A stretch of DNA of 64,000 nucleotides, from assembly GCA_030390025.1 (NCBI GenBank), contig CM059430.1, positions 74,772,001 through 74,836,000 on the forward strand, read 5' to 3'. This DNA comes from Squalus acanthias (Eukaryota). Position numbers and translations under genes: made by a program. The notes under the pieces were generated by a model. That model was given only the letters and a program-made list of their open reading frames with translations, was not told the DNA's origin and did not search any database. Below are positions 15,793-62,648 of the stretch, one piece after another (within the stretch, counting starts at the first letter, position 1; every line of letters begins with the position of its first letter).

Positions 15793-15839
15793 CATTCTTG
15801 GAGTCCTGTCAAGCACTTTCGGCATAGCATCGACATAAT

Positions 15840-20005: not shown

Positions 20006-20019
20006 TACTTAACTTGCTC

Positions 20020-20680
20020 CCTAGTTCCTTCAAAACTGTCTGTAGGACCTCAACACTTACCTTATTATGTAATTGGTTCCCACATGGAACACGAATTTTG
20101 GCAGCTCCCCTTCCCCCCGAAAAAGGTTCTGCATCCGTTCAGTGATGTAATTTCCTCTAGCACCAGGAAGGCAACACATCAGGCCGGACAGTTCGCATGT
20201 CCATCCCTCAGCCTATCGAACCCGCTATGGTCACTGCATGCCTACACTTCGCTGTGCACACTGTGCAGTCATTTGTTACACGTTGCCATGGATGTGCTCT
20301 AGATTGTAATTCCCCACGGTGTCTTCTTCCTTACCGGCCTTCAGTTCAGGAAACAAGATTGAGTGTGCCACACTCCTGGAGGATTCGTGCATAGCCTGCC
20401 TCTTCCTACCCAGCAGTTGGCCATCCATTTACTATTCACCTGATCTCTATGTGGCTGCGGGGTGACCACCTACTGGAAAGTGAGATCCAGGACATTCTCA
20501 ACCTCCCTTATGCCCTGCAGTGACTCCAGTCTCACCTCAATTTCAGAAAACCTGAGTTGGTGCTCGAGCATCCGGAGGCACTTCCTACAAACATGCCGTC
20601 CCGATGTTTCCACTTGGAACAGCAATTGCAGACAACGGGGCTTCTCTGTCCCATCATTTTAATTAAAGTCTATCTACAAA
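20020..20680 (-). mobile_element. CR1 ORF1 fragment
   Basis: Degenerate similarity to the ORF1 regions at 4250-4850 and 40850-41100. Confidence 0.6.
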
Positions 20681-20824
20681 AGGTACATACGATTACACAT
20701 ATGTTTTAGTTTAGCTCCCCGTTAAATATCAATTATTTAGTTAATATTGATATGTATTAAACTATATTTACTTAGAAAGCGCTGCTCTCCCCTATTACTC
20801 TTTTGCATCGCTATTTATCAATCA

Positions 20825-21715
20825 AGAGGACATTGCGAAAGCTACGGTAACGAAGCCTTGTTCGGAATACTGCATGTGATAAAAATAGATAACGCGGAGG
20901 GACTAGAAAGGCTGCCAGAACTTAAAGTAAAAAAGTGACCCGGTCCCGATGGGATACATCCTAGGTTGCTGAGGGAAGTAAATATAGAAATTGCGGAGCT
21001 GCTGACCACAATCTTCCAATCCTTCTTAGATACGGGGTGTTGGAAGAGGACTGGATAATTGTGAATGTTATACACTTGTTCAAAAAAGAGCAGAAAGATA
21101 TAGCTGGCAATTACAGGCCAGTCAGTTTAACATCAGTGGTGGGGAAGCACTTAGAATCAATAATCCGAGAGAAAGTTAACAGCCACATGGACAATTATGC
21201 GGTCTCTCAATAGTCCACTCCCTCCAATAACTGTTCAATTAACCTGAATAAAGCAGCGCCAACACGAATTTGTTCAGGGAAAATCGCGTTTGACTAACAT
21301 GATTGAGTTTATTGATAAGGTAACAGAGAGGTTGGATGAGGGCTGTGTAGCTGATATTGTGTATATGGTCTTGCAAAAGGCCTCTGATGAAGTACCACAT
21401 AATAAGCTTGGCAGCAAAATTGAAGGTTATGGGATAAAAGGGGCAGTAGCAGCATGAATACAAAATCGACTAAGAGATTGAAAACGAAGAGTTTTAGTGA
21501 ATGGCTGTTATTTCGGACTGGGGGAGGTATACCGTGCTGTTCCCCAGGTTTTCGTACCAGGGCCACTGCTGTTTTTGATGTACATTACTTACTTGGATTT
21601 GGGGTACAATGCACTATTTTGAGATTTTCAGATGTCACGAAGCTTGGAAGAGTATTAAACAGTGAGGAAGTTCGTAATAGACTTCAAGAGGATATAGGCA
21701 GTTTGGTGAAATATT
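20825..21715 (+). mobile_element. CR1 RT fragment
   Basis: Remnants coding for PGPDGIHP, NYRPVSLTS and FSDVTKLG. Confidence 0.85.
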
Positions 21716-21998
21716 GATAGCTCAATTCAAACTCTTTTTTCCGTCTCCGGTTTATGCAATTACAAAATAAAGCGTATTGATTGATTAAGGAAATTATATT
21801 CTGAGGAAAGATTAAGACCGATCTAATGGCCTTCAGCGGATCCACCAACGTAAGAGCAAAACAATCGTTTACACTCTGCAAGCTGCGGTGAATTAATTCA
21901 CACAGTAGCAGTCGGCATATCGCTTAATAATGTTTCACCAACGTAGAATGAATACCTGGAAATTGAAAATGTGATCGTTTGAAACAATAAATAATGCC

Positions 21999-22117
21999 TT
22001 ACTTGCAAAGGAGGCTAGCCTTAAAATGGTCGGCAACAAGGCATGATAGCAACAGAATTATTAAGAAACCAAATATAAACCTGGAAATCAAAGCAGCGCG
22101 AAGTCTGTAATCGGAAC
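21999..22117 (-). pseudogene. Gene A TM / short cytoplasmic exon GSDYRLRAALISRFIFGFLIILLLSCLVADHFKASLLCK*
   Basis: Phase-1 acceptor TATTACAG|GT and a hydrophobic segment of about 20 aa with an Arg near its N-terminal end. Aligns without gaps to the gene B TM exon (GSDY..LISR vs GTDH..LISG). An alternative donor AA|GTAAGG overlaps the stop codon. Confidence 0.75.
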
Positions 22118-24050
22118 CTGTAATATGCAAAATTATAGAATTTGAGTTATAAGGAGTGTTCTCTCGTAACATACTCAATAAATGACGCAAATGAAGATGT
22201 GGCCCAATTAATACTTCATTCCTACATTGGGTATTTAATGAGATGTGAACAACTTTGTACTATGGGGAAATAAACATTTTAGTTGCAGGCTTGGAGCCAT
22301 TTTAAACCGCATTATGCTTTCCTTTAAATGCTCAAATACTGAGGCAGGAAACACACGAACTTTATTCTACCTTGCCTGTTGGTTGTTTATAAATAGTTGA
22401 TCCAGTGGAAAACTAGTCACAGGAATTAATCTGAAATTGGTTAAAGAGTCCCTAATATGCCATCGATCGATATACTACTTACAGTAACAGTTTTGATTAG
22501 TTCCAAAAGCGATTTCTTCTTTAAAGTTACGGCGTCTTAGAGACCTAATCAATATCTGCGAATGTGCTTTATCTGGCAAAAACCGTAACATAGGCATTTA
22601 TTTCTCTTTTCTCCGTGTTTCAATAAAAACAAAGAGGAATGTTGTTGCCTAACCAGTTAGCTGTGTTGCTAAACTGTAACATTCCGATTTACTCTTTGTA
22701 ACATTCTACTTATTTAAGTGTAATATGTTACTGAACACAACCAAATGTTTCATACTCCTATCGATCGTCTATTATGTTTTATTTCTCTCATCATGATAAG
22801 TTCGTTGCTGCCGTGTAACACATTTACTTTCTCAATGAACCAAGGAAAGTTAAATGAGTATGACCTTTCCAGCATCGCACGCATCTCGAGAACAAATAAA
22901 ACGATCTTAGTTGATCGCCAAAAATAAATCTTCTAATAATATAAAACAATTAATTTTGTGCAAAAATATCGTCCAGTAATGAATTAGATTTCGTCAAATA
23001 GTATGTAATAATCACAAAAATATTTTAAAAATGTTTCAAAATTTGTTCGAGATCATAAGAATAAGCAATGAAGTTTTAGACAATAATTTTAAATGTGTTC
23101 TTATAACACGGCGTGACTCTGGGGAAAGTGCGGCATTTATCCCGAGGGATGTGTTTTGTTCCGGCTATTTGGGGCAACACACCGCACTCGCCCGCTATCA
23201 AAACGTTGCAAAAGAAAAAAACTTTACTTCCAAGCTTTGACTAATCCATTCAAACATTGAGCGATCAAACAACGGGGGATTGTATTAGCTTTCTTCAGAA
23301 ACACGGCTTATTTTGCCACTTTACATAATTAATACTGGCACAGAAATTCAGCGGCGGTTTTCCCAGTCCCCCGCCGTAAAGTCGACGGGAGCCGGCGCAA
23401 TTTGGAGAGCAATTGCTCAAATAGCCCTTTATGCCGTTTCTGAGAGGGTTTTGGGGGTCTTCGGCAGATGATCTAGAACGCCCCGCAGAATGACAGAGCC
23501 AGTCTTCTTTTATATCATTATATAGCAGATCAATTGAAATAAGATGGGACTTATGACTAAAGAGCACTAGAGCAAACAAATAAGGTTCCTAATGAGCTCG
23601 AAAGCAACAAAAGAAAGAATTGCGTTCAAAATGTCAATATCTGGTCTACCGGTTCAGTTGCAACGCGAAAGTAACTGATCTAGCGTAGATTTGGAACCAA
23701 AAGTGAGCTGAATTCATGAATTAAGGAAAATAAAAAAGTAATGGGGGGAATAAATTTGGCACTCAATTTAATTTATTTTATTTTATTTTACTGTAATCAA
23801 TCGGAGGAAAATTCATACGAGCTCAATCAAATGCATTATATATTACACGACAGATTAGGTGATGTATTCATTATGAGATAGAATGCACTATATCTTCCGA
23901 GTTTAGAAACCAGTAAATTAAATCATCTTTCAATTAATAGTGTTTCTAAAGGTATTTTAATAGTTGTGGCTGTGTCGTACATTAATGAACAAAATTAACT
24001 TTAAGTGTCAGCAGCAGCTCTTTCTATCCGTACAAATGTCAGGAAGTTAC

Positions 24051-24359
24051 CTGGGCTAGACCTGGCATTAAAGTAAATAGCCATGGCTGGATTCTGCAGT
24101 GTTAGATGAGACACCACACAGCTATATACAGCCCCGCTCAGGGCTGGATGTGGCGGTATCAAACAACTGGAAGCTTCATACATTCCCACCGAATTCAGCT
24201 TATTAATTGTGTTGATCCCAGTCACAATGTTCGTGTGATCTTTTTACCAAGTGAAGGTGAGAGATTCCGGGTAGAACGCCGTCGTTTTGCAGACGAGAGT
24301 CAGAGAAGATGATTTATCTTCAGCTATATTCGGCAAAATCCGTAACGGAGCTGGGGAAG
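24051..24359 (-). pseudogene. Gene A C1-set Ig domain exon with premature stop
   Basis: Acceptor TTCTATAG, donor CCAG|GTAACT. Encodes LVCKTTAFYPESLTFTW*KD...YEASS...YSCVVSHLTL, with the C1-set motifs CxxxxFYP, W and YxCxVxH. Confidence 0.9.
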
Positions 24360-25140
24360 CTATAGAACATGTTAGAGGGAAATAATTTGGTCTTTCTTTG
24401 TGCTTTAAAGATAGGATGCTATTATATTTTTGTTCCATGATTTTCAAATAGTGAGCATGACTTCAAACGCGCCAAATTGGATACAGACAGTGTTAGATGC
24501 GCCTTTGTGTAATCAGGACATAAAAAAATAACAAAATACGGAAGCATTTAAAAGTAATGCATATATGTAATAATTACCCATGCAAAGAAAAAAAGCAACA
24601 CAAATTGTTCAGGTTAAAAAAATAAAGTTGTGGATGCGGGAGCAGAGACTAAAGTAATGGTTTTTTTCCCTTCTCGTATTTTAGACATATTAGGAGGCAG
24701 TCTCTAAGACTGTTAAATAAATCTGTCTGAGATGTTTTTAAACGCGATGACTTTTATAAACTTGCACCAACATTTGAATTCCACGATGTTTGGTTGGGCC
24801 AAATACTCCAGGCAAATATAAACAAAACAACATTCCGTGTGTAACTATTACGAATTGCACTGTTGAAATTATTATTAGCATGCAATACAGTAAATGTCCG
24901 ACTTGACAATGCTAATAAGTATGCATAAAAGTAAAACACTGTAGTTAGTTCTCAAAGTATAACACACCGCTTTTTCGGGGTTTCTGTAGCTCTTCCGTCG
25001 AAGTTACGGCGGATTAACGCGAGATACCCCGCGGATATTCACCCTCATAATTTGCAATATATAAAACAATAATGATGTGTGATGGATAGAAGTGATTTGA
25101 ATTTGTCATGGAGATCAGCAATTTTACCTTTGTGACTCAC

Positions 25141-25458
25141 CATGAACAACAAGTCTCGACCCAGTTCCTTGTTCCATTCTATTTCCCTGCCGTCTCATTC
25201 CACAGTAATAGACCCCGGAGTCCTCGACACGAATCGATAGAAGCTCCAAATAGGAATTTCCTTCGTAAAAGATAAATTTCATTCCGCTGTTCGACCCCGA
25301 TTTAAGAAATGTATTTTCTCCCAGTCTCCACCAATAAACAGCCACGTCTGAATTATTTTTGAACGAGGGCAATGTGCAATTAAATGTAACGTTTGCACTA
25401 GCGATCACTTTCGTACTTGCAGGGGTTTGGGATACTTTGTACATTGCATCAGCACCAA
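25141..25458 (-). pseudogene. Gene A VJ-type Ig domain exon (open frame)
   Basis: Acceptor TTTCCGACAG, donor CATG|GTGAGT. Encodes VSQTP...VTFNC...VYWW...DSGVYYC...QGTGSRLVVH, with the canonical V-set Cys/Trp/DxGxYxC and a J-like GxGSxLxV. Confidence 0.92.
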
Positions 25459-25537
25459 CTGTCGGAAAGAAAAAAATTAAAGACCAGCGGCATATATCAT
25501 GGAGCACGGAAAATATAATAACATACACAAAATATAC

Positions 25538-25591
25538 CTGTGTAATGACCGACAGCAACGACACGTACTGAGCGACGGCTGTTAGGAACAT
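25538..25591 (-). pseudogene. Gene A leader (signal peptide) exon MFLTAVAQYVSLLSVITQ
   Basis: ATG at 25591, hydrophobic 18-mer, donor CAG|GTATAT. Homologous to the leaders of genes B and C but 1 nt shorter (ATT-ACACAG vs ATTTACACAG in gene C). Confidence 0.8.
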
Positions 25592-27919
25592 GTCGACCAA
25601 TATATGATGACCGCTGACAGGGAAAATAAGAGGGTTGCATTCAACTTGATGGAAACGTTGCAACGATGGAAAGAAGAGAGTGCTTGCTGTTATTTGGGTT
25701 TCGTAATCACAGTCATTTTCATTGGACCTGTAGATGGCGCCGAAAGCTAAATATGGTTTGGAGCCACGTCTTCACATCAGATGGCAGAGCAAAAGGATTT
25801 GTTCTCTCCCACACATATAGTGAAATAGTGGTACTGAATGATCATGTGTTATTGCATGACATCAGGTATCAAACTTACTTCATTAGCAATTACTGTTTAT
25901 TAATGACATATTTCACGATTGGTATGACAATGGCAAACCGACGCTTTTCTACACTTCTAAATGAAAATTGTATTTATTTTGATATTTGTAACTTAGGCCA
26001 CGTCGTTTCATCAGCCTCCATTCTATGAAAGAATACATGGAAAACTAACTTTTCCCTGTAGCTGGAATGACTGAGCATGCGATATCTAATTTGATAATAT
26101 TGATACTTGCTGAAATTCTGCACAAATAGCCGTTTACATCCTTCCCGATCTTCTGCGGAGAGACCATGAGAGTCCTCCTTCCGGCTAAATTTCCACGTAT
26201 GTAAGATTGTTTTTCTCGCTGTACCATGTGAACTCAGCCAATCGCAAAAAGCGTTCTCTATGGCAATACTTAAAGTCGGAGAAACATGCGGCTCTTTATC
26301 ACCTAGTCAGCACCAGCCATACATAAATAGGGACCATACCCAATCAGCTTCAACTCACTGACCAAGAGAGCTGTTGCCACTTCCTAAGGTATAATATTTT
26401 CTGGAAAATTATAGTTCAGGAATTGCGCTACTGTGAAGCTGGTGAATGCTGTCCCAGATCAGCAACCGACAATATTAAAGTCACCGGCCTGGACCACTGC
26501 CAAGGCGCACCAACACCTTGCGTGCAAAGAGTAAATGTAATCTCCCCGCAGAGAATTACTAAAAAACAGATGCACACAAAACAACGGCAAAAACGCCAAA
26601 TCGGTACCGAAACATGGAAAGACAACCTGATGAAACCAGCCTTTGAATTAGAAGCGCCTTTACCACAGTTCACAATATGGGTCACCTCAAGCGAAAAATA
26701 AGTCAGCGATGAAAAGGTTTTGTAACCTGAAACTGAATGTGTACAGAGGCCGTACCAACATGTGGAACAACGAGACGAACATGGTGCAATGTGAGAATTG
26801 TGAAATTAGAACACCTGCTGTCAACTGGAGGTGTCGGCATATTGGTTAACGTTTGTAGTGAGATGGTATTAATAATATTACGGAAAGCGAAAAATCTTTT
26901 CGAACACTCACAATCGGCACAAAAACAATTCTTTTTCTGATTTTACAAAATTGACAAAAAATAAAACAATATCACAATTCAGTCATCAAAATCATTCAAA
27001 TAGTGACAAAATAAATTAGCCTCCAGGACAGTGTCTCTATTCCTCAAACGTCTTCAAAACCTCAGTCCTGACCCGTGGTGCTAATCCCCGATCCTTCAAG
27101 GTTGAGTCCTCTCTTTCGGTTCTAGGCCATTTTATTTCGTGCTGGATACAGGGACGGGTTCCACCCGAGCACCAAAACATGGCGTCGGTCGCTAGTTTAA
27201 CACTATGCCCAGTCTCCAGTGTCAGGTTGCTTGCTGCCACTAAGTTAGAATCCCAGGTTCCGCGTGGATGTCCTATAACCGTGCTTTAAATCTGCTGCAG
27301 ACCGGCGTTGGCCGCCTCTGTCCCACGGAGAACCTGATGTACACCGCACGTGTTAGGACGAGAGATCAGGACCATTCTCGGTTTCATTTACAGCCTAGCT
27401 ATTTGTCGGCCGGTTTACAACATGGGCTGGGCAATGACCATTGTGTACAATGTTTTTTATTATTCTCGGTGACTTGATATAATTAGAAACACTGAAAGGG
27501 GGAGATGATTCTTCTTAACGATAAAGAAATTGTGATTTACCAATTCTCACAAATACGTGTGCCTTGAAACCTTTGGTCTAGATGAGCATGAAATGCCTAA
27601 TTCATTACAAACATCCTGCAACCTCAAATGGCTGCCCATAGATAATATTGTGAACAGCTTGACTTTGAGAATTTTAAGGCACACGAAAGATAACGAGTTA
27701 AAGTAGTCAGAATGTAAGTGCGTATTATTTATGTTGAAGTTGTTCTATAATAATAACAGAATGAACACTTGCATTCATACATTTAAGATTACAATTGTAT
27801 TAAGACAATGCTCCTAACTTTGGAAAATAAAATTCACTGTGTTCTGTTTTTAAAGCCTCTGAAGGTATTTTAGTTACTTCTATGTTTTAAAAGAGCAACT
27901 TGCATGACTGCACGTCTTG

Positions 27920-28950
27920 TTAGAACTGGTCATTGTCGGGCGCTTGTGTGCTGTGAATGTTACTTGTCACGTATCAGGCAACGCCTGGATGTTGTCCAGG
28001 TCTCGCTGCATGTGGGCATGGACTGCTTTATTTTCTGAGGAATTGCGAGTGGATCTGAACACTCTGCAATCATCAGCGAACATCCCCACTTCTGATCCTA
28101 TGACGGAGGTAAGGTAATTGATAAATCAGCTTTAGATGGTTCCACGTCGGACATTGCCCTGAAAAATTCCTGCAGCGATGTCCTGGAGCTAAGATGATTG
28201 GCTTCCCATGACCGTAGCCATCTTCCTTTTTGCCAGGTATGACTCGAACCAGTGGAGTGTTTCCCCCTGATCCCCATTAACTTAACATTTTAATTAGGGC
28301 TGCTTGATGTCACACTCGGTCAAATGCTGTATTTATGTCAAGGGCAGTCACTCTCACCTGAGCACTTGTATTCAGCTCTTTTCTCCATATTTGGACCAAG
28401 GCTGTAATGAGGTCTGGAGCCGAGTGGTACTGGAGGAACACAGACTTAGCATCCGTGAATAGATTATTTGGGAGTAAGTGCCACTTGATAGCACTGTCGA
28501 CCACTGCTTCCATCACTCTGCTAATGACTGAGAGTCGGCTGATGAGGTGTTAATTGGCCGGATGGATTTGTCCCTCTTTCTGTGGACAGGAGATACCTGG
28601 GTAATTTTACACGTTTTCGGGTAAATGCCAGTGTTGTAGCTATATTGGAACAGCTTGGCTAAAAGCGCAGCTAGTTCTGAAGCTCAAGTCTTCAGCACTA
28701 AAGTCAGGAGACATAGCCTTTGCTTGATCCAGTGTGCTCAGCCGTTTCTTGATATCACGTGGAGTGAATCGAATTTGCTGAAGATTGGCATCTGTGATGG
28801 TGGGAACTTCAGGAGGAGGCCGAGATGGATCACCCACTCAACAATTCTGGCTGCAGATGGTTGCGAACGCTTCAGACTTGACTTTTGCACTCATGTGCTG
28901 GGCTCCGTTTGAACTGCGGAAAACGGGATATTGGAATTTACCTCTTCCAA
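27920..28950 (-). mobile_element. Second LINE family RT fragment
   Basis: HSAPDLITALVQ...VTALDINTAFDRV and a remnant of the FADD motif. Confidence 0.8.
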
Positions 28951-30879
28951 CGGTACCTTTTTTGTTTTTGCATTAAGCCGGTACTACTTCTTTTATGTGC
29001 AATCGTATGGGCACAATTCAGAGATCTGCGGCTGAAGTAAACTGTGTAGTCGATTCTTACCGTAAGAAAGCGGTGCACTGTTCATCTCTATTGGGAATAC
29101 TGGCAATTTGAACCGCTTTTTCTGGCTGTGAGAAAATATATTCTGGTAGTGTCACCTGCCCCGAAACTGTCACAAAACAAGATACCAGATCAGGAAATCA
29201 GAAGACAAAAGTACGTCAATATTTCTATTTCGCAGCAAACTCTCATCAAAGTTTCTCCAGTCTGCAAGCTCCGAAGTGAAACAATTCCCTGTAGCAACGA
29301 ACTTGTCAACGAGCATGCTTTAATAAACCAGCGTGAATTACTTGGTCTCTGAAATTTCCCGAGTTATTTCGCGCTTTCATGCGGGAAACGGGAGAAAACC
29401 CTCAGAACAATTGCCTGAAGTATCACCTTCAACCGTTTACGGCCATATTTGTTTGAGAGTTCGCTGATTTCTCTCGGAATTTAGGGCAAGAGATTGGAGG
29501 AATCCCTATAGAATATCCGCCCTATTTCTGCCTTAGGAATGCAAGTCATATGAAAGAAAAAGGCTTTACATAAATTGAAGCAAAATGATGTGTACGTGGC
29601 GGCATTATTATTGACTTTTTAGCAATATATATTTAAATATTCACCACTCCGGATTCCCTTGCCTAGTTTTCTGCTTTCCTGAAACTGGATGGTAAGTTGA
29701 CGTAATCATACCAAAGCAAGCCACAGCAATTTCACTCCTGAGCACAGGTGTTATTTGAAACGTATTTGTAAAATTCTCCTTCGTGTCCCTACTTCCTTAA
29801 ATTATTGCTCCCGAATTCCGGCAGCCAACTAAACATCCCACCAGATTATCTTTTCCATTGAAGTGCATCAGGCGGCGGATCGGATAGTGCCAGTCTTATG
29901 GCACCTCTGAAGTTGAACGTTCCACCCATTGTAAGAGTACTTTGGATTTATAAATCTCGTACAAATTGCACATGTAGATTGTGTGCGGGCGTTCCGCAGT
30001 GAGTCTTGTCTGTTAATAGGCATTGGTGATTCTGGAAAAGGATATAGATTAACTGAGGTAGCATCATGCCGGAATAGTAACACATGTTACTGTTAGACAT
30101 ATATTAGAATATTAATGCTTGATTTTGCACGTCGCCTATTCACGTCAAACGTGCCAAAGAAGTTCTCGCAATCAGTTACTTTGCAGCAACTGTTATGCAT
30201 TTTAACATTAATGTTTGTGAGGGTTATACCGAGAAGCTTTTACATTTTGGCCCCGTTTCGACCAGGAATGTTCTGCTTGCATTCTCCAAGAAGAGCGACT
30301 GTTTCTCGTACTTTATTGCCCGCGCAGTCCTATTGATTAAATTGACTGAGATTTGGCGGGTGATGTCCTATAAACACGTGAATTCCGGAAAAATAAAAAC
30401 TGACACATTAGAATACTTTCAAACATGAAATTTATCATTTTGAGCTGAATTAAATAAGTGATCTTTAAAAGGGACCCAGCATCCTAATTTGCCAAGTGCT
30501 GCTAAAATTGGGGCAATTTGAAAGTTCGATGGAAACTACATGTGATATGAGCGTTCAAAATGTATCGCTTTCATCACAAGTTAGTCGACTGGTAAATGAC
30601 GTTGTTGAGGTGAATGGCTATTCAGAATTTGCATCTTAACTTGGCAGAGGTAATAGTTTCACTTTCAGGTCACGAATTGAAATCCTCGTTGTGGCGATAT
30701 CTTTAATCAGTTATGCTGAAAACATTCGAAACAATACACAAAGAGGTGATGCAATCCTCAACGTCACTTTGTATGCAGATGTCTCTGTTTCCCTTCAATA
30801 TGTATGGGTGATGGGGGGTTTGTAATATGAATGACAGCAACGTCTATTTTCTAGACGATTTTGCACGTAAGTTTACATA

Positions 30880-33380
30880 ATATAACATAGAATCGTTGAA
30901 TAATAGAACGATACAGCACAGAAGGAGACCATTCTGCCCATTGTACCTGAGCTGGCTCTTTGGTAGAGTTATGCAATCAGTCCCATTCCCCTTCTCTTTC
31001 AACATAGCATTTCTTTTTCCCTTCAAGTATTTATCTGATTGTCTATTGAACCTGCTTCCACCACCCTTTCAGAAAGTGCATTCCGCATCACAAAACCTCG
31101 CTGTGTAACACAATGTTTCGTATGGCGCCTCTGGTTCATTTGCCAATCGCCTTGAAACTGTATTCGCTGATAACCACTGGAATTTTTTTTCCTCATTTAC
31201 TCTATCAAAATAGTTAATGGTTTGGAGCACCTCCATCAAATCTTCTCTTACAGTTCTCTGCTCTAAGGAGAACAACCCAGCTTCTCCAGTCTCTCCACAT
31301 ATCTGAAGCGCCTGATCGCTGCTACAATTCGAGTCAATCTCTTCTGCACCCTCTCTAAGTCCTTGACTTCCTGCCGAAAGTATGGTGACCAGAATTGAAC
31401 ACAATACTCCAGCTGAGGCCAACCAGTGTTTTATATACCTTTATCATAACTTCCTTGCTTTTGTCCGCTATTCCTCTAGTAATAAAGACGAGGTTTCCAT
31501 ATGCTTTTTTATCAGCCTGCTCACCTTGTCCTGCCACCGTCAAAGACTTGTGTACATATACCGCCATGTCTCTCTGTTTCTGCACCCCCTTTACAAATGT
31601 ACCATTTAGTTCATGTTGCTGTCTTCTAATTCTTCCTATCAAAGTATGTCACTTCACACTTCTCTGCATTAAATTTCATCTGCTGGATTTGTCTGCCCAT
31701 TTCATAAGTCTATTTATGTCCTCCTGAATGTTATTACTATCCTCCTCATTGAAAACCACTTTTCCATGTTTCTTTTCATCTTCAAACTTTGAAATTATGC
31801 CCTGTATACCCAAATGCAGCTCATTAATGTATGACAAACGGAGCAAGGATCCTAATAACTACCCCTGGGGAACACGACTCTATCGCTCCCTCCAGTCTGG
31901 AAAACAACAGTTCTACTCTCTACTTTCTGATATTTAGACAAGTTTGTATCCATGAAGCCAATGTCCCTTTAATTCCTTGGCTTATAATTTTGCTAAAAAA
32001 ATCTATTTTGTGGTACTTTGTCAAATCCCCTTTTACAGTCCATATACACAACATGAACAACACAACCATCATCAACCCCTTCCGTTACTTTATCAAAGAA
32101 CTCGATCAAGTAAGTCTAACATGGTTTGCCTTTATCAAATCCGTGATGACGTTATTTTATTACCCCATAATTTACCAATTGCGAATTCATTTTTTCCCGG
32201 ATTACTGTCCCCAGAACTTTCCCTCCCACCGTCGTTAGGCTGACTGGCCTCTAGTTGCCGGGTTTATCCCTCTTCCCTTTTTTAAACAGAGGTGTAGCAA
32301 TTGCAATCCTCCAGGGCTCTGTCACCCATCCCATACTCAAGGAGGGTTGGAAGATTGTGGCCAGAGCCACCGCAATTTCCACCCTTACTTCCCTCAGTAA
32401 CGTAAGTTGCATCCCATCTGAACCAGATGATATTTCTTCTTTGAGGACTGCCAAACTTTTAAATACCTTCTTTTTTATCTATGTTTATCCCATCCAATAT
32501 CACTACTGCCTCCTCTTTTAATGCTACATTGGCAGCAGCCTCTTCTCCAGTGAAGAGAGGTGGTAACTGCAAAGTACTCATTTACTACCTCAGCCAAGCC
32601 CTCTGCCTCCACTTGAATATCATCTTTTTGGTCCCTAACCGGTCCCACCCTTCCTTCGAATACATTTACAATCAGTGTTTATAGAAGGTTTTGGGGTCCT
32701 TTTTATGTCGGCTGCTGATCTTTTTTCATACTCACTGTATGTCACACCTATTCACTTTATTAGATCTCCTCTCTACTTTTATATTCAGCTTGGTTAATTA
32801 CTGTATTATGAACCTTACAGTTGATATAAGCTTCCTTTTTCTGTCTCATTTTTACCTCTACGTCTTTAGTCATCCTGGGAGCTCGAACTTTAGATATCTT
32901 TCCTTTCCTCTTCAATGGAATATCTACTCTTTACCAGAACCATCTCCGCTTGGAAGGCCTCCCATTGGTCAATGAATGTTTTAACGACCAAATTTTGATT
33001 TCAATCCACCTGGGCAAATCCATTCGCATATCATTGAAGTTATCACTCTTCCAGTTAAGTATTTTTCCAATTGATTGTACCTTGCCCTTTTTAATTTTTT
33101 TCTAAACCTGATGTTATTATGATCACTGTTCCCCAAATGCTCTCCCAATAAAACATGCTCCACTTGCCGCAGTTAATTCCCCAGACCTAGACACAGCAGT
33201 GGTTCCTTCCATTGAAGTGGCAACTCACTGATCAAGAAAGTTCTCTTGTACATATTTCAGTAATTCCACCTCCTCTTTGCCTTTTGCATTGTTACTATTT
33301 CAGTCTATATTTGGTTAATTGACGTCCTCCAATATCACAACTCTGTAGTTTTTGCATCTTTCTGTAATTTACCTTCAATA
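30880..33380 (-). mobile_element. Decayed CR1 (3' tail to endonuclease)
   Basis: CATAGAAT-type tail; WRIAIATPLFKKG and LGNSDHN motifs. Confidence 0.88.
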
Positions 33381-33638
33381 GTGAATTTATTATTTTTATT
33401 GTTTCAGTGAGGAAATAGGTTTAGCGAATGAAGTCAAGCAATAATAAAAAAGCTAGTTCAAGGGCTTTCACAAAAAGTGAAAGGTTCCCTTAATGTTATT
33501 TTTCAGTTTCTGTGTAGAAATTGGACGAGGGTTACATCTAATTGAACATCTGTAAATGAACCGGTATTAATAGTCATTTTTGAGACTTTACCAGTCCTTC
33601 TACACAACATGCTACTGTTTTATAACGTTATAGCAATC

Positions 33639-34700
33639 TGTTAGGTATTCCAGAAATATGTACATGATCCGGTATATTGAAAGGATTCGCCAAATTTCAT
33701 GTGTTTCCCCCCCCCTGAAGATTTTTGTTGTTGGACTTATTAATAAAGAAACCCTGATCAGACTGAGTATTAAAATCCAGGGCATAAAATGGCCGCGGTC
33801 GGACCTCGTGACCGAGAGCCTGGCAGTTTTATTTCAGACGCTGAGAAGCCATCAGCTTGTGTATTCCGATGTCTGCAACAGGAAGTTACAGGACCTTTCC
33901 TTATGCATTACAACAGGTCTATGCATAAGGCTTTCAAGGTGTTTGCTCAAATAATCAGCTGGGACATTGAGACGGGGCTGGGCCCATCAACGGAACTGTT
34001 CTGGATAATCATCCAACCTGTCGAACAATAGGGTGGCAGTTGAACAACTGGTGTCACACCATTACCGGCCATCTAACATGATGGGCCGAGACCAGTACCT
34101 TTTGTTAAAATTCATCATGCCCAGATCAGACAATAGAAATGTGCTGATCGGTAGGAAGATTAGGGCGACCGGACGGGGTATAACTGGGAAGACCCAGCCA
34201 TTTTTCTCTCTCTCTGCCTGGACCCGTTTCGCTCTGTCTGCCAGCAGCTAAGAAAGAAGACTTCCAGAAATGCCACGTGTCGACGGCAGAAACAGAGCAC
34301 AGGGCCAGGTTTTTCCATCCATTTCACCGGTGAGCATTATCATTCTTCTGGCTGTTGCAAGACCATTTTTGTTAGGCATAAGGGTGGGGATTAATGGGGA
34401 TATTGCTAAAACTGTAATTTTAGGATTTTCCCTCGATGTGTCCGTTCTCTTCCCATGCTAAGTGTAAAACCGTTTCCATATGATACTGTTTCTCTGTAGT
34501 TTTACTTCTGTAAATAAACATTGGTTTTCCTCGCACCAATCCAAGGGTCTGTTCGTTTGTCCTTATCGCCGCTCGATAAGTCCTGGGCTCAGAACTAATA
34601 ATAAAGGGATAGCGATTCGCAACCGCACAGCGGGCAGAGACAGTCCAGGAAAACATAACTGGCTGACCTACAAATAAGCCCGAGACAAAAAAACCTTACA
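33639..34700 (+). mobile_element. Possible solo LTR
   Basis: TG...CA ends with a 7/8 inverted match (TGTTAGGT / ACCTTACA); TATAA at 34179 followed by AATAAA at 34513; more GC-rich than the flanks. No clean target-site duplication. Confidence 0.4.
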
Positions 34701-35847
34701 ATGTACAATGACAGTGTGCGGTTGGACAGATTTCTTGAGTTTTACTAGACTTCTGTTTGACAGGGAATATCGTCTCTAGGCATTTTTCATAGGAAATTAA
34801 ACGGGTTGTGCAGTGAAATATTGAAAATGTATCAATGAGGATTCAGACGATTCAGATTATAATCAGAACTGCAAACATCTTCTTTAATCAATTGCAGCGC
34901 AATTCCTTTACTGGTTATTTTCGGAACATTCCCGGTGAATCAGCCCAATCTAAAGCCACTAGTGTGATTATTGTCTGTGTAAAATGCGAACTTAGAAATA
35001 TATTGACGTTACCTGTCTTAAATCGCAGTAAAGCGAAATCGCCGAATTTTAAAAGACCAAATTGTTCTTAAAATGCAGTAAAACATTTGTTTGTAGATTT
35101 ATGTTTAGGAATCAATAGTGTCACAATGATACTTGCAATCAATGCAGTGCTGCGAATTAAGCACTTTTATAATATATGTCACTGTATGAAAGAAAGGTGT
35201 CTCCACAGTGACATATACTTGCACTTTATTATTTGATTGAACGTTTGTTAACAGAAATTATAATTTTACATGTCTGCGGTAGAAATACAAATATTACAGG
35301 GAACGATCAAATAAGATACGCATGTATTTATCAACAAAGTTCAACATCATAGATGACTGCATAACATTTAGAAACGAATACTCATTTTATTTTGCTTAGT
35401 CTAACACAGTATTCATTCTGTCCTATCATATAATGTAAGATATTAAACGCTGTCATTTTACCTTTACCACCTGTGGCCTTTGAATCATTAATCACTTCCT
35501 TATTTGTGAGACGTTGAACAATAGTTGATAGCAAATTCAAATTAAACCGATTCAGGACAGAATGAAATAGCAACAGCCATTCTCAGCAAGAGACAATGGT
35601 AATTTTATTGTGAAATTATTCCGTCTAAAAGAATAGAACTAATTATTTGACATTTTATTATGTTGAAAGGGCATTGACTCCCCGACTAATAACGAAATAC
35701 GCAGATGACATGAGCGACATACGCGTGCAATCTGTTTAACAGGCAAAATGAACATTTATACCAGTGAATTGTCTTTTTCTATCGGCAGTTGCAATATTAA
35801 TTGATTGTGTAGCGGTTATTTCATCTTGCTGTTCTTCGTTTTTTTAT

Positions 35848-35933
35848 CTACCTTCCCAATATCTGTTCATATTCATGAGGCTGGTTAAATCTACAGCAGA
35901 TATTCCACTCCTCCGAAGCCGTCCTCGCATTAT
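35848..35933 (-). other. Candidate cytoplasmic exon of gene B (DNARTASEEWNICCRFNQPHEYEQILGR)
   Basis: Non-repeat DNA with acceptor TTTGCCTTAACAG. The phase-1 frame matches a repaired 117-nt TM exon and contains a YxxI motif. No homologue in the window confirms it. Confidence 0.25.
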
Positions 35934-36894
35934 CTGTTAAGGCAAATTGTACCGGACTTATAAACACAATTTTTGCCAAGCTGGAAACAAATGTTTCAAC
36001 AATGAACAGAATTGGGAAATGGAAAGTGTAGCTGCAGCAATTAACGAGCTTCAATTAGTGTTACAAAATTCTGCATGTAATGCAGTTAATTTTAGCCCTA
36101 TTCCCATGTTTTTCCATGTTTATACAGTGCAGCGTCATAATGTGTCGCAATCGATTCTAAAGCGCAGCTGTCTTACACTCCAAATGTCTGAAGTTACGTT
36201 GCAGAGCTCGCTCATACGATCTTCAGTATCACATTCTCGATTACACGTTATATGAATCACATTTCGTTATAAATATCCGAAATTTTGAATCAAACACCAC
36301 GTTCTTAATAGTCAGATAACAAACTATTTTGTACTCTGGGAAATATGGGCATTTAAAATAAAGCTATTGGTTAGACGTGATAAATAATAAACATTTCTTC
36401 GGTGATATCCTTTCAAATAGCTTTCAAAACCACATCACGATTTCTCGACTGATTAAAAAATAGAGCTGCTTCTTGAATCTGCAACTTTCTGTAAAGTTCC
36501 AGTTCTATATGCAGAGGAAACGATCGATTCATATTCCTTCTTATTCTGAATTCGAGCGCATCCAATTGTGGATAGTGAAAACAACGTTTGTTGACTTGAG
36601 GCATAAATCGTACTGAGACTGAATGTCTACAATCTTGGTAGATTCACATCATATATATACAATTAAGTATTTAATAAGGTCGCAATAACGTCAATTGGGG
36701 TAATATTGCTTCCCAGTGTTCTGCGAATGCAAGTCAGGCATAGGGACAGAAGATGTTAATATATTGCCTTTATTTTATTTGATGATTGATATATGTCCAT
36801 ACTATTTACCAGAAATGTCGGTCCATCTCGTGTGATGAAAAAAATAACTTCCATCGTCAATTCTGGCCAATGAGCAGAATTGGAAACATGACTG

Positions 36895-37295
36895 GTGAAT
36901 TGGGATTGTTCTCCTTAGAGCAGAGAAGTTCAAGGGGAGATTTAATAGAGGTGTTCAAAATTATAAAGGATATTGATAGAGTAAATAAGGAGAAACTGTT
37001 TCCACTGGTAGTAGGGTCCGTAACCAGAGGACACAGATTTAAGATAATCGGCAGAAGAACCAGAGGCGAGCCGATGAGAAGCGACTTATTGTCCTGGAAT
37101 GCACTACCTGAAAGCGGGGTTGAAGCAGATTCAACAGTATCTTCCAAACAGAATTGGATATATACTTGGAAAGGAAAATATTGCAGCGCTATAGAGAAAG
37201 AGCCGCTAAAAGGGACAAATTGGTTCGCTCTTTGAAAGAGCAGAGACAGCACCATGGTCTCATGCTGTACTATATTATTCTATAATTCTACGATA
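36895..37295 (+). mobile_element. 5'-truncated CR1 3' end
   Basis: LGLFSLEQRSSRGDLIEVFKI...TRGHRFK...WNALP followed by a TTCTAT-type tail. Confidence 0.85.
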
Positions 37296-37451
37296 TTAAG
37301 TAGACTAAAAGTAGCTTGTGTGTTGTTAAATGGTAGAATCTGTCTTATTGGTGGTAATACTTGATAGGATAAGCACCTCAACTTCTAAATTTGCAAATAG
37401 TGAATATGTTCGATGTGAAAATGTTCTACAGTCAGCTTTTTAGTATCTAAA

Positions 37452-40400
37452 TCATAGAAACATAACAATAAAGATAGGAGCAGGAGTAGGCCATTCGGCC
37501 CTTCGAGCCTGCTCCGCCATTCGATGAGATCATGGCTGATCATACAAACTCAGTGCACTGTACCTGCCTTCTCCCCATATCCCTTGATACGTTTAGCTTT
37601 AAGAAATATATCTAACTCATTGTTGAATATATTTAATGACTTGGACTCAACTACCTTCTGTGGTAGAGAATTCCACAGGTTCACCACTCTCTGGGTGAAG
37701 AAATTCTTCCTCATTTCTGTCCTAAATGGCTTACCCGTTATCCTTAGATTATGAGCCCTGTTTCTGGACTCTCCGACCTTCGGGAATATTCTTCCTCCAT
37801 CTAGTTTGTCCAGACATGTCAGAATTTTATATGTTTCGATGAGATCCCCTCTCATTCTTCTATACTCCAACGAGTATAAGCCCAATCGATCCAATCTCTC
37901 CTCATATGTCATTCCTGCCATCCCAGGCATCAGCCTTGTGAATCTTCGCTGAACTCCTTCCATGGCAAGAACATCCTTCCAAAGATAAGGCGACCAAAAC
38001 TGCACATAGTACTCAAGGTGTGGTCTCACCAAGGCCCTGTACAACTGCAGCAGGACATACCTGTTCCTATACTCAAAACCTTTCGCTATGAAAGTCAACA
38101 TACCATTTGCCTTCTTTACCGCCTGCTGCACCTGCATGCTTACTTTCAGCGACTGGTGCACAAGGACACCCAGGTCTCGTTTCACTTCCCCTTCTCCCAA
38201 TCTAATGCCATTCAGATAATAGTCTGCCATTCTATTTTTGACATCAAAGTGGATAACCTCACACTTATCCACGTTATATTGCATCTTCCACGCTTCTGCC
38301 CACTCACCCAACCTGTCCAAATCATCCTGGAGTTTCTCGGCATCCTCCTCGCAGCACACACTCCCACCCAGCTTTGTGTCATCTGCAAACTTGGAGATGT
38401 AACATTTAGTTCCCTTATCTAGATCTTTAATGTATATTGTGAATAGCTGGGGTCCAAGGACCGATCCCTGCGGTACCCCACTATTCACTGCTTGCCACTC
38501 GGAAAAAGACCCATTCATTCCTACTCTCTGCTTTCTTTCCGCTAAACAATTCTCTATCCAAGTCAATACCTTTCCCCCAATTTCATGTGCCTTAACTTTA
38601 CACGCTAATCTCTTATGCGGGACCTTATCGAAAGCCTTTTGAAAGTCCAAATATACCACATCTACTGGTTCTCCCTTATCTATTTTCCCAGTTACATCCT
38701 CAAAAAATTCCAGCAGATTAGTCAAGCACGATTTACCTTTTGTAAATCCATGTTGACTTTGTCCGATCCTGTCACTGTTTTTCAAGTGCTCAGCTATTAC
38801 ATCCTTTATAATGGAGTCTAGCATTTTCCCTAATACTGAAGTCAGGCTTACAGGTCTGTAATTTCCCGCTTTCTCTCTACCACCCTTTTTGAATAGTGGG
38901 GTAACATTAGCTACGCTCCAATCCATGGGTGCAGTTCCAGATTCCATCGAATGTTGGAAGATGATCAGCAATGCATCTACTATTTCCAGGGCCACTTCCT
39001 TAAGTACACTAGGATGTAGATTATGAGGCACTGGGGATTTATCGGTCTTCAATCCAGTCAATTTCCCTAACACCATTTCCCTGCAAATACTGATTTCTTT
39101 CAGTTCCTCCCTTTCATCAGATGTATGTTCTCCAACATCTCTGGGAGTTTATTTGTGCCCTCCTTTGTAAAGACAGAACCAAAATATACATTTAATTGGC
39201 CTGCCATTTCTTTGTTCCCCATTATAACTTCCCCAGCTTCTGACTGCAAGGGACCTACACTTGATTTCACTAATCTTTTTCTCTTCACATATCTATAAAA
39301 GCTCTTACAGTCAGTTTTTATGTTCCCAGCATGCTTACTTTCATATTCTATTTTCCCCTTCTTAATTAATCACTTTGTCCTCCTTTGTTGAATCCTAAAC
39401 TGCTCCAAATCCTCAGGGCTACCGCTTTTTCTGGCCAATTTATATGCCCTCTCCTTGGATCTTATGCTATCCCTAATTTCCCTTGTTAGCCACGGTTGAG
39501 TCACACTTTTTGTGTTATTCTTATGCCACACTGGGAGGAACAAATTCTGTAGTTCATCCATGCAGACTTTGAATGTTTGCCATAGCCTATCCACCGTCAA
39601 CCCCTTGAGTGACATTCCCCAATCAATCCTACCCAATTCGCGCCTCATACCATCATAGTTTCCTTTATTTAAATTCAGGACCCTAGTTTCTGATTCAACT
39701 ACTTCACTCTCCATCCTAATGAAGAATTCTATCATATTATGATCACTCTGACCCAAGGGGCCTCGTACAACAAGATTGCTAATTAATCATTTCTCGTTAC
39801 ATAATACCCAGTCTAAGATGACCTGATCTCTGGTTGGTTCCTCGACATATTGTTCCAGAAAACCATCTCGTAAACATTCTAGGAATTCCTCCTCCACAGT
39901 ATTTTTACTAATTTGGTTACCCCAATCGATATGCAAATTAAAGTCACCCATGATGACTGCTGTGCCCTTACTGCATGCTTCTCTAATTTCCCTTTTAATG
40001 CCCTCCCCAACCTCCGTATTACTGTTTGGAGGTCTCTATACCACTTCCACTAACGTTTACTGCCCCTTGTTATTTCTCAGTTCTACCCATACAGATTCCG
40101 CATCATCAGAGCTAATATCCTTCCTTCAATTGTGTTAATCCCCTATTTAACCAGCAGTGCTACCCCACCTTCCTTTCTTTTTTGCCTATCTTTCCTAAAT
40201 ATTGAATAACTCTGGATGATGAGTTCCCAGCCTTGGCCACCCTGGAGCCATGTTTCTGTAACCCCAAACAAATCGTATTCATTTACCTCTATTTGCTCAG
40301 CTAATTCATCCACCTTGTTCCGAATGTTCCTTGCTTTAAGACACAAAGCCTTCAGGCTTGTTTTTTTAACGCTCTCAGACCTATATGAATTATTATTTAC

Positions 40401-41105
40401 TGTGACCATGTTTGATTTAAACCGTTGAGTTCTTTGCCTTCTACTTTTGTTTTTCTGCTTCCTGTCTTTAGCTTTTATCCTTGTTTCCCTTTCCTCTGTC
40501 TCCCTGCTCAGGTTCCCAACCCCCTGCCACTTTAGTTTAAACCCTCCGCAACAGCACTAGCAAACACCCCCTTGGACATCGGTCCTGGCCCTGCCCAGCT
40601 GCAGACCGTCCCGTTTGTACTGGTCCAACATTCCCCAGCTCCGGTTACAATGTCCAAGGATTTTGAATCCCTCCCCCTTGCACCATTCCTCGAGCCACGT
40701 ATTCATTTGAAATATCCTCCTATTTCTACTCTGACTAGCACGTGGCACTGGTAGCAATCCTGAGATTACTACCTTTGAGGTCCTCTTTTTTAATTTACCT
40801 CCTAACTCCCTATATTCTGCTTTTACGACCTCATCCCGTTTTTTACCTATATTGTTGATGCCTATGTGCACCAAGAAAACTGGCTGCACGTCCTCCCCCT
40901 CAAAAATGTTCTGTAGACGCTCCGAGACGTCCTTGACCCTTGCACCAGGGAGGCAACACACCATCCTGGAGTCTCTATTGCGTCCGCAGAAACGCCTATC
41001 TATTCCCCTTACAATTGAATCCCCTATCACTATTGGTCTTCCACACTTTTTCCTCCCAGCCTGTAGAGCAGAGTCACCCATGGTGCCAGGAAGTTGGCTG
41101 CTGCC
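37452..41105 (-). mobile_element. Best-preserved CR1 LINE in the window (ORF1 esterase, broken endonuclease, open RT)
   Basis: ORF1 VIGDSIVRG...VHIGINN (SGNH esterase-like); endonuclease fragments GVTETWL and GQSDHN; 508-aa open RT frame. Confidence 0.96.
37550..39076 (-). pseudogene. CR1 ORF2 reverse transcriptase domain (508-aa open frame, element-derived)
   Basis: NYRPVSLTS, QHGF, LDFQKAFDKVPH, GVPQGSVLGP, FADDTKL. The upstream endonuclease region is frameshifted, so the element is not autonomous. Confidence 0.93.
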
Positions 41106-41594
41106 ATGTTTTAATTTACTACGTTGCCTATTCTTAAGTCTTAATTAAATTGCAGATCTAGAGTTTAGTTTCTTGTCTAGGTTAAAATGAAACAATGATT
41201 ACAGTGGTGAGCTGAAGTTTTTATGAAGTATCATCCAGTCTTCTAGCGGTCTGGAGGTTTGCAATGTAGGATGTATCTCATTGCGAGTGAAAGACCACAG
41301 AAATTCAACTTTCATTAAGATTTTCCGAATAAAACTTTTAAAAAGTTTTAAACTCCATTATGATCATTGAAAATGATAATACATTAAATAATAAATTCAG
41401 GCATAGAATCGAAAGTGATCTTTAGCATATTGCTTCGTGCTGTCCATTGGACAGGAAACATCTCTTAATGCCATCTCTTAAGTTTGAACTGAGTAATCAA
41501 TCATCTTTGCCCGAAAGATGCTCTTGATTTTTGTAACGTTTTGGTATTAAAATTGAAGATTTTAACCGCAAACGAAATTGGTTATTTTTTTTAC

Positions 41595-41710
41595 CTTTTA
41601 AGCTGTCCTTTGAATTGCGCCGCTTCCAATAATGATTATCACCAGTAGGAATAACAGTACACTCCCTGTCTAGCCAGAAATTAATACGTAGTTGGCGATA
41701 TGGTCAGTGC
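41595..41710 (-). pseudogene. Gene B transmembrane exon GTDHIANYVLISG*TGSVLLFLLVIIIIG...
   Basis: Acceptor TCTTACAG, donor AAAG|GTAAAA, uncharged hydrophobic run. A shifted frame after the TM reads KRRNSKDSLK, which looks like a stop-transfer segment and suggests a 1-nt deletion. Confidence 0.75.
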
Positions 41711-42545: not shown

Positions 42546-42860
42546 CTCTGTAAGATTCAGTAAACTTGTGGATCACTATGGCTGGAGTCCGGAGAGAGAC
42601 ATGCGATACCAGACACGTATAAACAATCACGCCTCGGACTAGTTGTTGCTCTTGCACAAAGCTAGAAGCTTCATACTCCCACTCCTGTCTATTGCGCCGT
42701 TTGATGGTGTTAATGCCAGTTGTAGTTTCGATACCATTTTTATACCAAGTGACGGTGAGATCCTCCGGATAAAATCCTGCTGTTTTACACACGAGAGTCC
42801 GAGGTGCAGAATCATCTTTTCGACTTTCCACTGAGAGGATTTTTAATGGAGTCGGCGCGG
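42546..42860 (-). pseudogene. Gene B C1-set Ig domain exon (open frame)
   Basis: Acceptor TTTGCAG, donor AGAG|GTAAAC. Encodes AAPTPLKIL...LVCKTAGFYPEDLTVTWYKNG...YEASS...YTCLVSHVSLRTP. Confidence 0.92.
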
Positions 42861-43626: not shown

Positions 43627-43947
43627 CACATACGGTTAAATGTGAACCACTTCCATTGTCACTTCTTCTTCCCTGACGGATGACTGTGCAGTAATAGACC
43701 CCCGAATCCTTAAAACTCACATTCAGCAGTTGGAAAACGCCAGCTCCTTTATTTTGGAGAGATAATCGCTTTCTGTTATCTGGCTTTGTGTGCAGGTATT
43801 GCTTCTCACCATCTCTCCATCAATATACGTTTGCATGTGAGTTGTCCCGAGAGAAGGGAAATGTGCAATAGAAGCTGGCGTTCGAACCTCTGATCGCAAT
43901 CAACCTTAAGGGGGCTTGAGACACACTGAGCGAAGTATCGGTGTCTG
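43627..43947 (-). pseudogene. Gene B VJ-type Ig exon with stop codon (missed by the ORF track)
   Basis: Manual translation: ADTDTSLSVSQAPLRLIAIRGSNASFYCTFPFSRDNSHANVY*WRDGEKQYLHTKPDNRKRLSLQNKGAGVFQLLNVSFKDSGVYYCTVIRQGRRSDNGSGSHLTVC. Acceptor TAG|CAG (NAGNAG), donor G|GTAAGT. Confidence 0.9.
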
Positions 43948-62148: not shown

Positions 62149-62203
62149 ATGTCTGTGTGCGCTGTAGTTCTGGTCATATGGGTCCTCGGGATTATTTACA
62201 CAG
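62149..62203 (+). CDS. IgSF receptor gene C leader exon MSVCAVVLVIWVLGIIYT
   Basis: ATG at 62149, 55 nt, hydrophobic, phase-1 donor ACAG|GTATTT; homologous to the leaders of genes A and B. Confidence 0.88.
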
Positions 62204-62327: not shown

Positions 62328-62648
62328 TTGATATTGACGCTCAGTTCCGAGTCTCCCAAGCTCCTGAAAGCAGGAGCTTGCTCTTGGGTTCAAACATCAC
62401 CTTCTATTGTACATTCCCCATTTTTCAAAATAACTCTGATGTGAGTGTTTATTGGTGGAAACTTGGCGAAAATAAATTTCTGCAAACAGCCTCCGACAAC
62501 AGGAAAACATTTATCCTTTTTAAGCAAGGGGGAGCCTCCTTTCATCTCCTGAATATCAGTGCGTGGGACTCTGGGGTCTATTACTGCGGAGTGAGAAACC
62601 TGGGAAGCAGGATTGTAAACGGAACAGGCTCAACAATCAAAGTCTCCG
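62328..62648 (+). CDS. IgSF receptor gene C VJ-type Ig exon (intact; remaining exons presumably beyond the window)
   Basis: Acceptor TTTCCTGACAG, donor CCG|GTGAGT. Encodes VSQAP...ITFYC...VYWW...DSGVYYC...NGTGSTIKVS, in frame with the leader and free of stops. Confidence 0.93.

Follow-up and report, generated by a model that had tools for sequence, protein, structure and literature searches.

Do the members of one shark receptor family signal in opposite directions? The question is raised by a 64,000-nucleotide stretch of the Squalus acanthias genome (NCBI GenBank assembly GCA_030390025.1, contig CM059430.1, positions 74,772,001 to 74,836,000, forward strand), called the window below and numbered from its first letter. 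This 64-kb window holds three related genes, of which genes A and B lie on the minus strand and the start of gene C on the plus strand. A sequence-only reading had noted that the transmembrane (TM) exons of A and B align without gaps, and six-frame translation, which puts both on the minus strand, reproduced the reading: the Arg of gene A (AGG, 22082) stands in the same column as the Gly of gene B (GGC, 41675). It had proposed on this basis a family with activating and inhibitory members, and the wider comparison upholds that proposal. Exons with immunoreceptor tyrosine-based inhibitory or switch motifs (ITIM and ITSM) are found in neutral-TM paralogs and in none of gene A's Arg class, and genes of opposite type occur in pairs with near-identical ectodomains. 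The cluster is likely a paired receptor system, in which neutral-TM members with ITIM tails would inhibit and Arg-TM members with short tails would activate via a dimer of FcR-gamma or CD3-zeta. No such pair is formed by genes A and B themselves, as their nucleotide identity is only 57% in the V exon and 64% in C1, near-identical ectodomains are absent, and both genes are broken.

Extent of the cluster

A genome search with the C1 exon of gene B gave at least 139 matches, with 128 of them on G000:C6 between 61.1 and 76.9 Mb, a region of about 16 Mb; the best 150 of 497 candidates were scored, and the count is a lower bound. The cluster comprises more than 100 non-rearranging genes of the order leader, VJ, C1 and TM, which would encode antibody-like surface receptors. 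Stretches of about 10 kb around 120 C1 matches were examined, and 18 genes were extended downstream and 20 upstream (L-numbers denote loci of the cluster and P-numbers database proteins). With a TM profile, the Arg/Gly column could be located in 97 distinct genes, A and B included. The count leaves out five TM rows without an aligned anchor, four of which have Arg one column later, and L061, which fell just below the score cut. The other loci yielded no TM exon within the DNA examined, which was about 10 kb each and in some cases extended.

Homologs in the databases came from sharks, rays and chimaera only, although two full-length word-seeded searches (52 and 49 matches) are weak evidence of absence elsewhere. 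They bear loose automatic names such as SIRP-alpha-like, tapasin-related and lambda-like, with SIRP-alpha as the commonest label of NCBI. The ectodomain of 65 database proteins is V-C1 in 60, V-C-C, V-C-V-C and V-V-C in one each, and C only in two.

Transmembrane type and cytoplasmic tail

The 97 genes comprise 59 with a neutral TM and 38 with Arg, so the residue is not confined to gene A. The latter are divided into 17 Arg-DH (the class of gene A), 10 RYA, 5 RCA, 3 RCT and 3 RSA genes; Lys occurs at this column in none of the 97. Tails were compared with a profile of the Tyr-bearing tail unit from database proteins, and a downstream match of at least 25 bits was counted as an ITIM-type exon. 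Such exons accompany 30 of the 59 neutral genes, so uncharged paralogs do bear tyrosine motifs, and 3 of the 38 Arg genes, all of them RSA. None was detected in the 17 Arg-DH genes, 11 of which were examined over 12-17 kb, and strong matches were likewise absent from the RCA (0/5) and RYA (0/10) genes, seven of the latter having weak, degenerate tail remnants. In the antisense control the profile matched at five loci only, and at these the supposed 'antisense' strand is the one with the real gene. A first cytoplasmic exon of 44 nucleotides is present in most neutral genes and mostly retained in the three RCT and three RSA genes; it was not found intact in Arg-DH, RCA or RYA genes. Database proteins give comparable figures. 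In a first set (47 of 65 with a TM call), tails of at most 35 residues were found in 9 of 11 Arg proteins, and an ITIM in 25 of 36 non-Arg proteins. In a second set (35 of 82 with a TM call), 5 of 6 Arg proteins were short-tailed and 17 of 29 non-Arg proteins had an ITIM.

L027, L028, L029, L033, L034, L036, L038, L042, L047, L052, L055 and L113 form a 12-gene subfamily with mostly neutral TM, in which the first cytoplasmic exon is mostly kept and no ITIM exon was found (two members were examined over 15-17 kb); these are possibly non-signalling, SIRP-gamma-like members. In a further TM subfamily, that of L061, L066, L076, L099 and L104, the Arg is shifted C-terminally by one column from the anchor, to a position where relatives have Cys or Ser; L061 and L110 retain a Tyr-motif exon.

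Ectodomains shared between opposite types

Opposite TM and tail types on highly similar ectodomains, a feature of paired receptors, are present in at least five cross-type pairs. High identity between the paired genes ends in or at the C1-TM intron. Their nucleotide identities (V/C1/TM, per cent) are as follows.

L040 and L045: 100/96/54
Gene C and L063, its Arg-class partner: 97/96/57
L037 and L093: 96/97/49
L021 and L048: 93/94/64
L014 and L015: 99/98/70
L004 and L005: 99/99/72

The trees of the separate exons differ in shape. The 17 Arg-DH exons form one clade in the TM tree (support 97/83), and in the V and C1 trees the same genes are scattered among ITIM genes; a one-clade constraint on the Arg-DH V exons was rejected with an approximately unbiased test value (p-AU) of 6e-89 (14 of 71 rows). 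Similar TM exons are also found across sharks. For example, the TM of gene C is 68% identical to that of Heptranchias P0001, the TM of L063 is 64% identical to that of Heterodontus P0002, and one RYA TM is 85% identical to Scyliorhinus P0078. The same TM types recur in database models of Heterodontus, Carcharodon, Scyliorhinus, Mustelus and Chiloscyllium. By this comparison the TM types predate Squalus acanthias, both being present in further shark orders. Even so, the V domain of gene C has 95% amino-acid identity with that of L063, and the two have only 81-86% with TM-type-matched homologs of Heptranchias and Heterodontus. As the TM types are old and these two V domains are nonetheless closer to each other than to their cross-species homologs, the ectodomains appear to be under concerted evolution and are probably kept alike by gene exchange.

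The arginine, its origins and its splice site

Each of the 17 Arg-DH genes has its Arg at position 4-6 of the best hydrophobic window of 21 residues; in 14 of them an Asp comes 17 residues after the Arg, and five different codons spell the Arg. A single origin of all 38 Arg TMs was rejected (one clade, p-AU 7e-5). Arg-DH and RCA as one clade were not rejected (p 0.15), and the union of Arg-DH and RYA gave a borderline value (p 0.045). In RCT and RSA the Arg looks to have come recently, by change of a single base within neutral clades. Judged from these trees, the Arg is an imperfect marker on its own and was gained more than once.

The end of the Arg-DH TM exon is also variable. The donor is one base late in 11 of the 17 genes, bringing a TAA in frame; five genes have it where it usually lies, and one has lost it. 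L063 has an acceptor 3.9 kb downstream, and the phase-2 exon that starts there encodes eight residues, none of them Tyr, matching the C-terminus of Heterodontus P0002. The region of this short exon is conserved in L057 and L100; the shifted donor is therefore probably used in the L063 lineage. A terminal exon common to the Arg-DH lineages was sought and none was established. L065 and L069 have a stop inside the TM exon. Open V, C1 and TM exons, the three that were checked, are present in about 9-10 of the 17 Arg-DH genes.

Proposed mechanism and its alternatives

In the system proposed here, the V domain of neutral members would bind a self ligand, and the ITIM/ITSM tail would recruit SHP-1/2 phosphatases and brake the cell. 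Arg-DH members, and probably RCA members too, would recognise this ligand or one that mimics it and activate the cell via an FcR-gamma or zeta dimer, the Arg-Asp assembly with the adaptor being formed in the membrane's outer half. Candidate adaptor TM exons are present in the genome, a zeta-like one on C5 and an FcR-gamma-like one on C1222, both with an Asp; a search for the DAP10 family matched none of 45 candidates, which does not establish absence. Recombination or gene conversion across the C1-TM intron would keep the binding sites of partners matched while the signalling cassettes stay old, and birth-and-death turnover would leave pseudogenes such as A and B.

Several observations weigh against so tidy a division. 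A strong ITIM-exon match is missing in 29 of the 59 neutral genes, often with too little flanking DNA examined; two of five extended neutral genes gained one, and the neutral L027 and L029 had no ITIM exon in 15-17 kb. In the Arg classes, the three RSA genes retain ITIM exons, L080 has weak ITIM-exon matches, L061 (Arg one column later, uncounted) has one match, and the database protein P0003 combines Arg with an ITIM tail. The Fisher values for TM type against tail (p 8e-6 and 5e-5) are overstated, because of the kinship among the genes. Support for the Arg-DH TM clade, which is based on 105 columns, is 82 without the Arg codon. The claim that the Arg sits inside the membrane helix stood for the 17 genes of gene A's class and failed for the 10 RYA genes, whose Arg is just beyond the best hydrophobic window. 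Along with the RSA tails, this removes Arg at the column as a clean activating marker. The NxxR motif is present in only one of the 17 Arg-DH genes (L045), and P0029 and P0108 have Gln in place of Arg in the same short-tail TM.

These last three observations (the RYA position, the scarce NxxR and the Gln) would suit short-tailed Arg members that do not signal at all, and act as decoys or adhesion partners competing for the ligand of the ITIM receptors, with the Arg merely marking the edge of the membrane. Short-tailed neutral proteins do exist (6 of 36 in the first database set), and association with an adaptor is a prediction from sequence. However, the Arg has been retained through five codons across lineages with TM exons only 51-65% identical, it lies within the hydrophobic window in the Arg-DH class, and the adaptor genes are present in the genome. 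An acidic residue at the C-terminal end is, moreover, a reported feature of FcR-gamma-associating TMs: PMC6557307 characterizes the activating TM of the leukocyte receptor complex (LRC) by an NxxR motif and acidic C-end residues. PMC1440944 puts Arg in the N-terminal TM segment of FcR-gamma partners (position 3 in Fc-alphaRI) and a central TM Lys in type I partners of DAP12. Decoys are thus judged improbable. The Arg genes may also be regarded as decaying duplicates of inhibitory genes, in which one base turned Gly into Arg (GGA to AGA or CGA) and the tail was lost by pseudogenization. The three RCT and three RSA genes, set within neutral TM clades and mostly keeping the first cytoplasmic exon, agree with this, as do the broken gene A, L106, L069, L115 and L119. 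It is contradicted by the roughly 9-10 Arg-DH genes with V, C1 and TM exons all open and by the same TM types in models of five other shark genera. As an account of the whole Arg group such decay is very improbable, and it probably holds for RCT and RSA only.

Genes of the window

The exons of the three genes were located as follows.

25538..25591, minus strand: gene A leader exon, 54 nucleotides, phase 0, probably frameshifted (the leaders of B and C have 55 nucleotides and phase 1)
25141..25458, minus strand: gene A single-exon V-J domain, frame open, Pfam V-set
24051..24359, minus strand: gene A C1 exon, in-frame TAA at 24246-24244
21999..22117, minus strand: gene A TM exon, Arg class (22117-22003, and the TAA at 22001-21999 overlapping the donor)
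19335..23197, minus strand: gene A 3' cassette (part of the C1-TM intron, TM exon and downstream DNA), 91-93% identical to L106
44092..44146, minus strand: gene B candidate leader exon, 55 nucleotides, phase 1
43627..43947, minus strand: gene B single-exon V-J domain, TGA at 43822-43820
42546..42860, minus strand: gene B C1 exon, frame open, Pfam C1-set
41595..41710, minus strand: gene B TM exon, neutral class, Gly (GGC) at 41675-41673, TAG at 41672-41670, donor at 41594
62149..62203, plus strand: gene C leader exon
62328..62648, plus strand: gene C V-J exon, Pfam V-set

Genes A and B share the order leader, single-exon V-J, C1 and TM. The V exons of all three genes close with a G-x-G motif of J-like form and a donor right after it, from which V and J are read as a single exon. 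In the window, a family TM profile drawn from 22 TM exons of the cluster, including one with 95% identity to that of gene A, matched only the TM exons of A and B at 10 bits or more.

The Arg codon of gene A (AGG, 22082-22080) is followed by an Asp 17 residues later. The earlier reading of a short tail and a stop was borne out for the tail; the stop is less simple, for the TAA (22001-21999) falls in a donor consensus, AA/GTAAGG, with a phase-2 donor starting at 22002, one base later than the usual phase-1 position. The stop may be removed by splicing, given that the paralog L063 has a downstream phase-2 exon matching the C-terminus of P0002, and the tail would be short in either case. An unproven candidate acceptor near 21800 would give gene A one extra residue. 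With a phase-0 leader of 54 nucleotides and a TAA in C1, gene A is a pseudogene. It looks chimeric as well. From 23197 downward it is 91-93% identical to its neighbour L106 (the C1 of which is broken too), and V and C1 are only 61-64% identical; hence one of the two is a recombinant, and gene A is probably the ectodomain of one lineage joined to an L106-type Arg cassette. A PDB search with the TM of gene A gave chance matches to G protein-coupled receptors only.

Gene B is a pseudogene as well: its V exon holds a TGA (43822), and its TM exon has both a TAG (41672) and a frameshift. The TM exon measures 116 nucleotides against 114 in the intact gene C and has two in-frame stops. The donor ascribed to it is present at 41594, whereas the basic stop-transfer segment is out of frame, sitting in another frame after the frameshift, and no cytoplasmic tail exon was found anywhere in the window by tblastn and profiles. 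About 450 bp downstream of its TM exon, a retroelement of the long interspersed nuclear element (LINE) type occupies the place where paralogs have the first cytoplasmic exon (400-720 bp after the TM exon in most).

37453..41144, minus strand: LINE-type retroelement
39148-37553, minus strand: reverse-transcriptase frame of this element, open, 532 residues
41144-40560, minus strand: upstream GDSL-esterase-like frame

Many older LINE fragments fill the window. A three-copy repeat family with 67-78% identity (15059-16541, 46310-46839 and 56542-57249) had no Pfam match in the six frames scanned, and a Pfam scan of ten repeat-derived frames gave one match.

Gene C (L001) runs beyond the window. Its reconstruction has seven exons with canonical splice sites and gives an intact neutral-TM receptor of 376 residues, with five tyrosines in the tail that include one ITIM and one ITSM-like motif.

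Other loci of the cluster show rearranged layouts. Two C1 exons stand ahead of one TM exon in L046, L063, L100 and L115; those of L046 are near-identical and open with a partial V between them, and the second C1 is broken in L063 and L100. The subfamily of L041, L050, L058, L068 and L108 has an inverted partial C1 fragment within the same 10-kb stretch. Near-identical copies lie several Mb apart (L064 at G000:C6:67.43 Mb and L001; L065 and L069; L085 and L086) and indicate putative block duplications between sub-clusters. The TM exon of L064 appears frameshifted, and that of gene C is intact.

Relation to known receptor families

Receptors that come in activating and inhibitory pairs are familiar from bony vertebrates, and the SIRP family shares most with the cluster. 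Like it, SIRP has a V domain with a J-like motif, C1-set domains and a tail whose tyrosines form two tandem pairs in ITIM/ITSM-like motifs, spaced by 22-23 in the cluster and by 24 and 26 in bat and bird SIRP-alpha (the profile scores are modest). That the cluster is the cartilaginous-fish orthologue of SIRP with one C1 domain fewer would agree with SIRP-alpha clusters ranking first by language-model features (0.97), with the place of SIRP-alpha among the top PDB matches, and with bat and bird SIRP-alpha among the profile matches. Likewise, the tail-unit profile, tried on 71 proteins from outside the family, matched the tails of SIRP-alpha and no others, at 10-12 bits where shuffled sequences reached 7.6 at most. 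Immunoglobulin chains and UrIg2, however, score equal to or above SIRP, and bird SIRP-alpha is slightly better on C29 than on C6, all matches being weak. SIRP has two C1 domains against one in the cluster, where 60 of 65 proteins are V-C1 and just one is V-C1-C1, and the cluster has more than 100 genes. SIRP-beta1 has a TM Lys and pairs with DAP12; the activating residue of the cluster is an outer Arg. Orthology by synteny was also rejected: NSFL1C and SNPH are the neighbours of SIRP, and SEP-domain and syntaphilin matches lie on C8 and C11, the cluster on C6. Genes labelled POU3F4-like and POU4F-like on C6 presumably suggest homology to human Xq. Clustered V and C1 matches to bird SIRP-alpha are also found outside C6, on G000:C26:14.95-15.66 Mb and C1615. 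Orthology is accordingly rated unlikely. By the features compared, SIRP is the nearest named system and alike in logic, but membership fails on the single C1, on Arg in place of Lys and on linkage.

The cluster resembles the LRC in being large and pseudogene-bearing, and the spacing of 16 residues from Arg to acid is like that of LRC activating TMs. LRC activating receptors (LILRA, NKp46, GPVI, Fc-alphaRI and OSCAR) have an outer TM Arg, a C-end acid and a short tail like the Arg class, going by PMC6557307 and PMC1440944. Membership in the LRC (KIR, LILR, NKp46 or CHIR) was rejected, because the cluster has V-set and C1-set domains in place of the C2-type ectodomains of the LRC, and NxxR in only 1 of 17 Arg-DH genes. 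NKp30 (NCR3) has a single VJ domain directly before the TM and no C1; this family too was rejected, as genes A, B and C all have a C1 exon separating V from TM. PRARP is reportedly a VJ-C1 gene with ITIMs, and by their architecture PRARP and tetrapod VJ-C1 genes share the VJ-C1-TM-ITIM layout with gene C. NITR of ray-finned fish are, like the cluster, a large paired family with V-J domains; membership was rejected because their second domain is I-type and that of the cluster C1-set. A preprint (10.1101/2021.06.11.448072) states that evidence of NITR is lacking in cartilaginous fish.

UrIg has a single-exon VJ followed by C1, as in the cluster, according to PMC10751288 and PMC12227049, and UrIg2 was the second-best PDB profile match. 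Unlike the cluster, UrIg2 has ten immunoglobulin domains and is linked to the antigen-receptor complex, and UrIg is linked to the major histocompatibility complex. [quoted passage not shown] Their domain type is different, and the cluster shows the pattern in at least five separate ectodomain lineages.

Meaning for cartilaginous fish

A full-text search, judged mostly from titles and the starts of abstracts, found no paper describing a large paired V-C1 family in cartilaginous fish. The principle of homogenization is already known, RefSeq has models of the proteins under loose names, and the flagged genes A and B are dead copies. What the cluster suggests is that ectodomain homogenization between receptors of opposite signalling also operates in the oldest jawed-vertebrate lineage, on an unrearranged antigen-receptor-like chain. 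It is conceivable, and put forward tentatively, that the cluster is the cartilaginous-fish counterpart of KIR, LILR and Ly49, an undescribed and ancient paired-receptor system on an antigen-receptor-like VJ-C1 chain in which a few old activating cassettes are joined again and again to new ectodomains by recombination across the C1-TM intron. If so, activating decoys would track their inhibitory partners in an arms race with pathogens, and the cluster would supply the missing self/non-self receptors of shark natural killer or myeloid cells. The intact pairs L040/L045, gene C/L063 and L037/L093, together with the candidate adaptors, give a direct handle on innate self/non-self discrimination in sharks.

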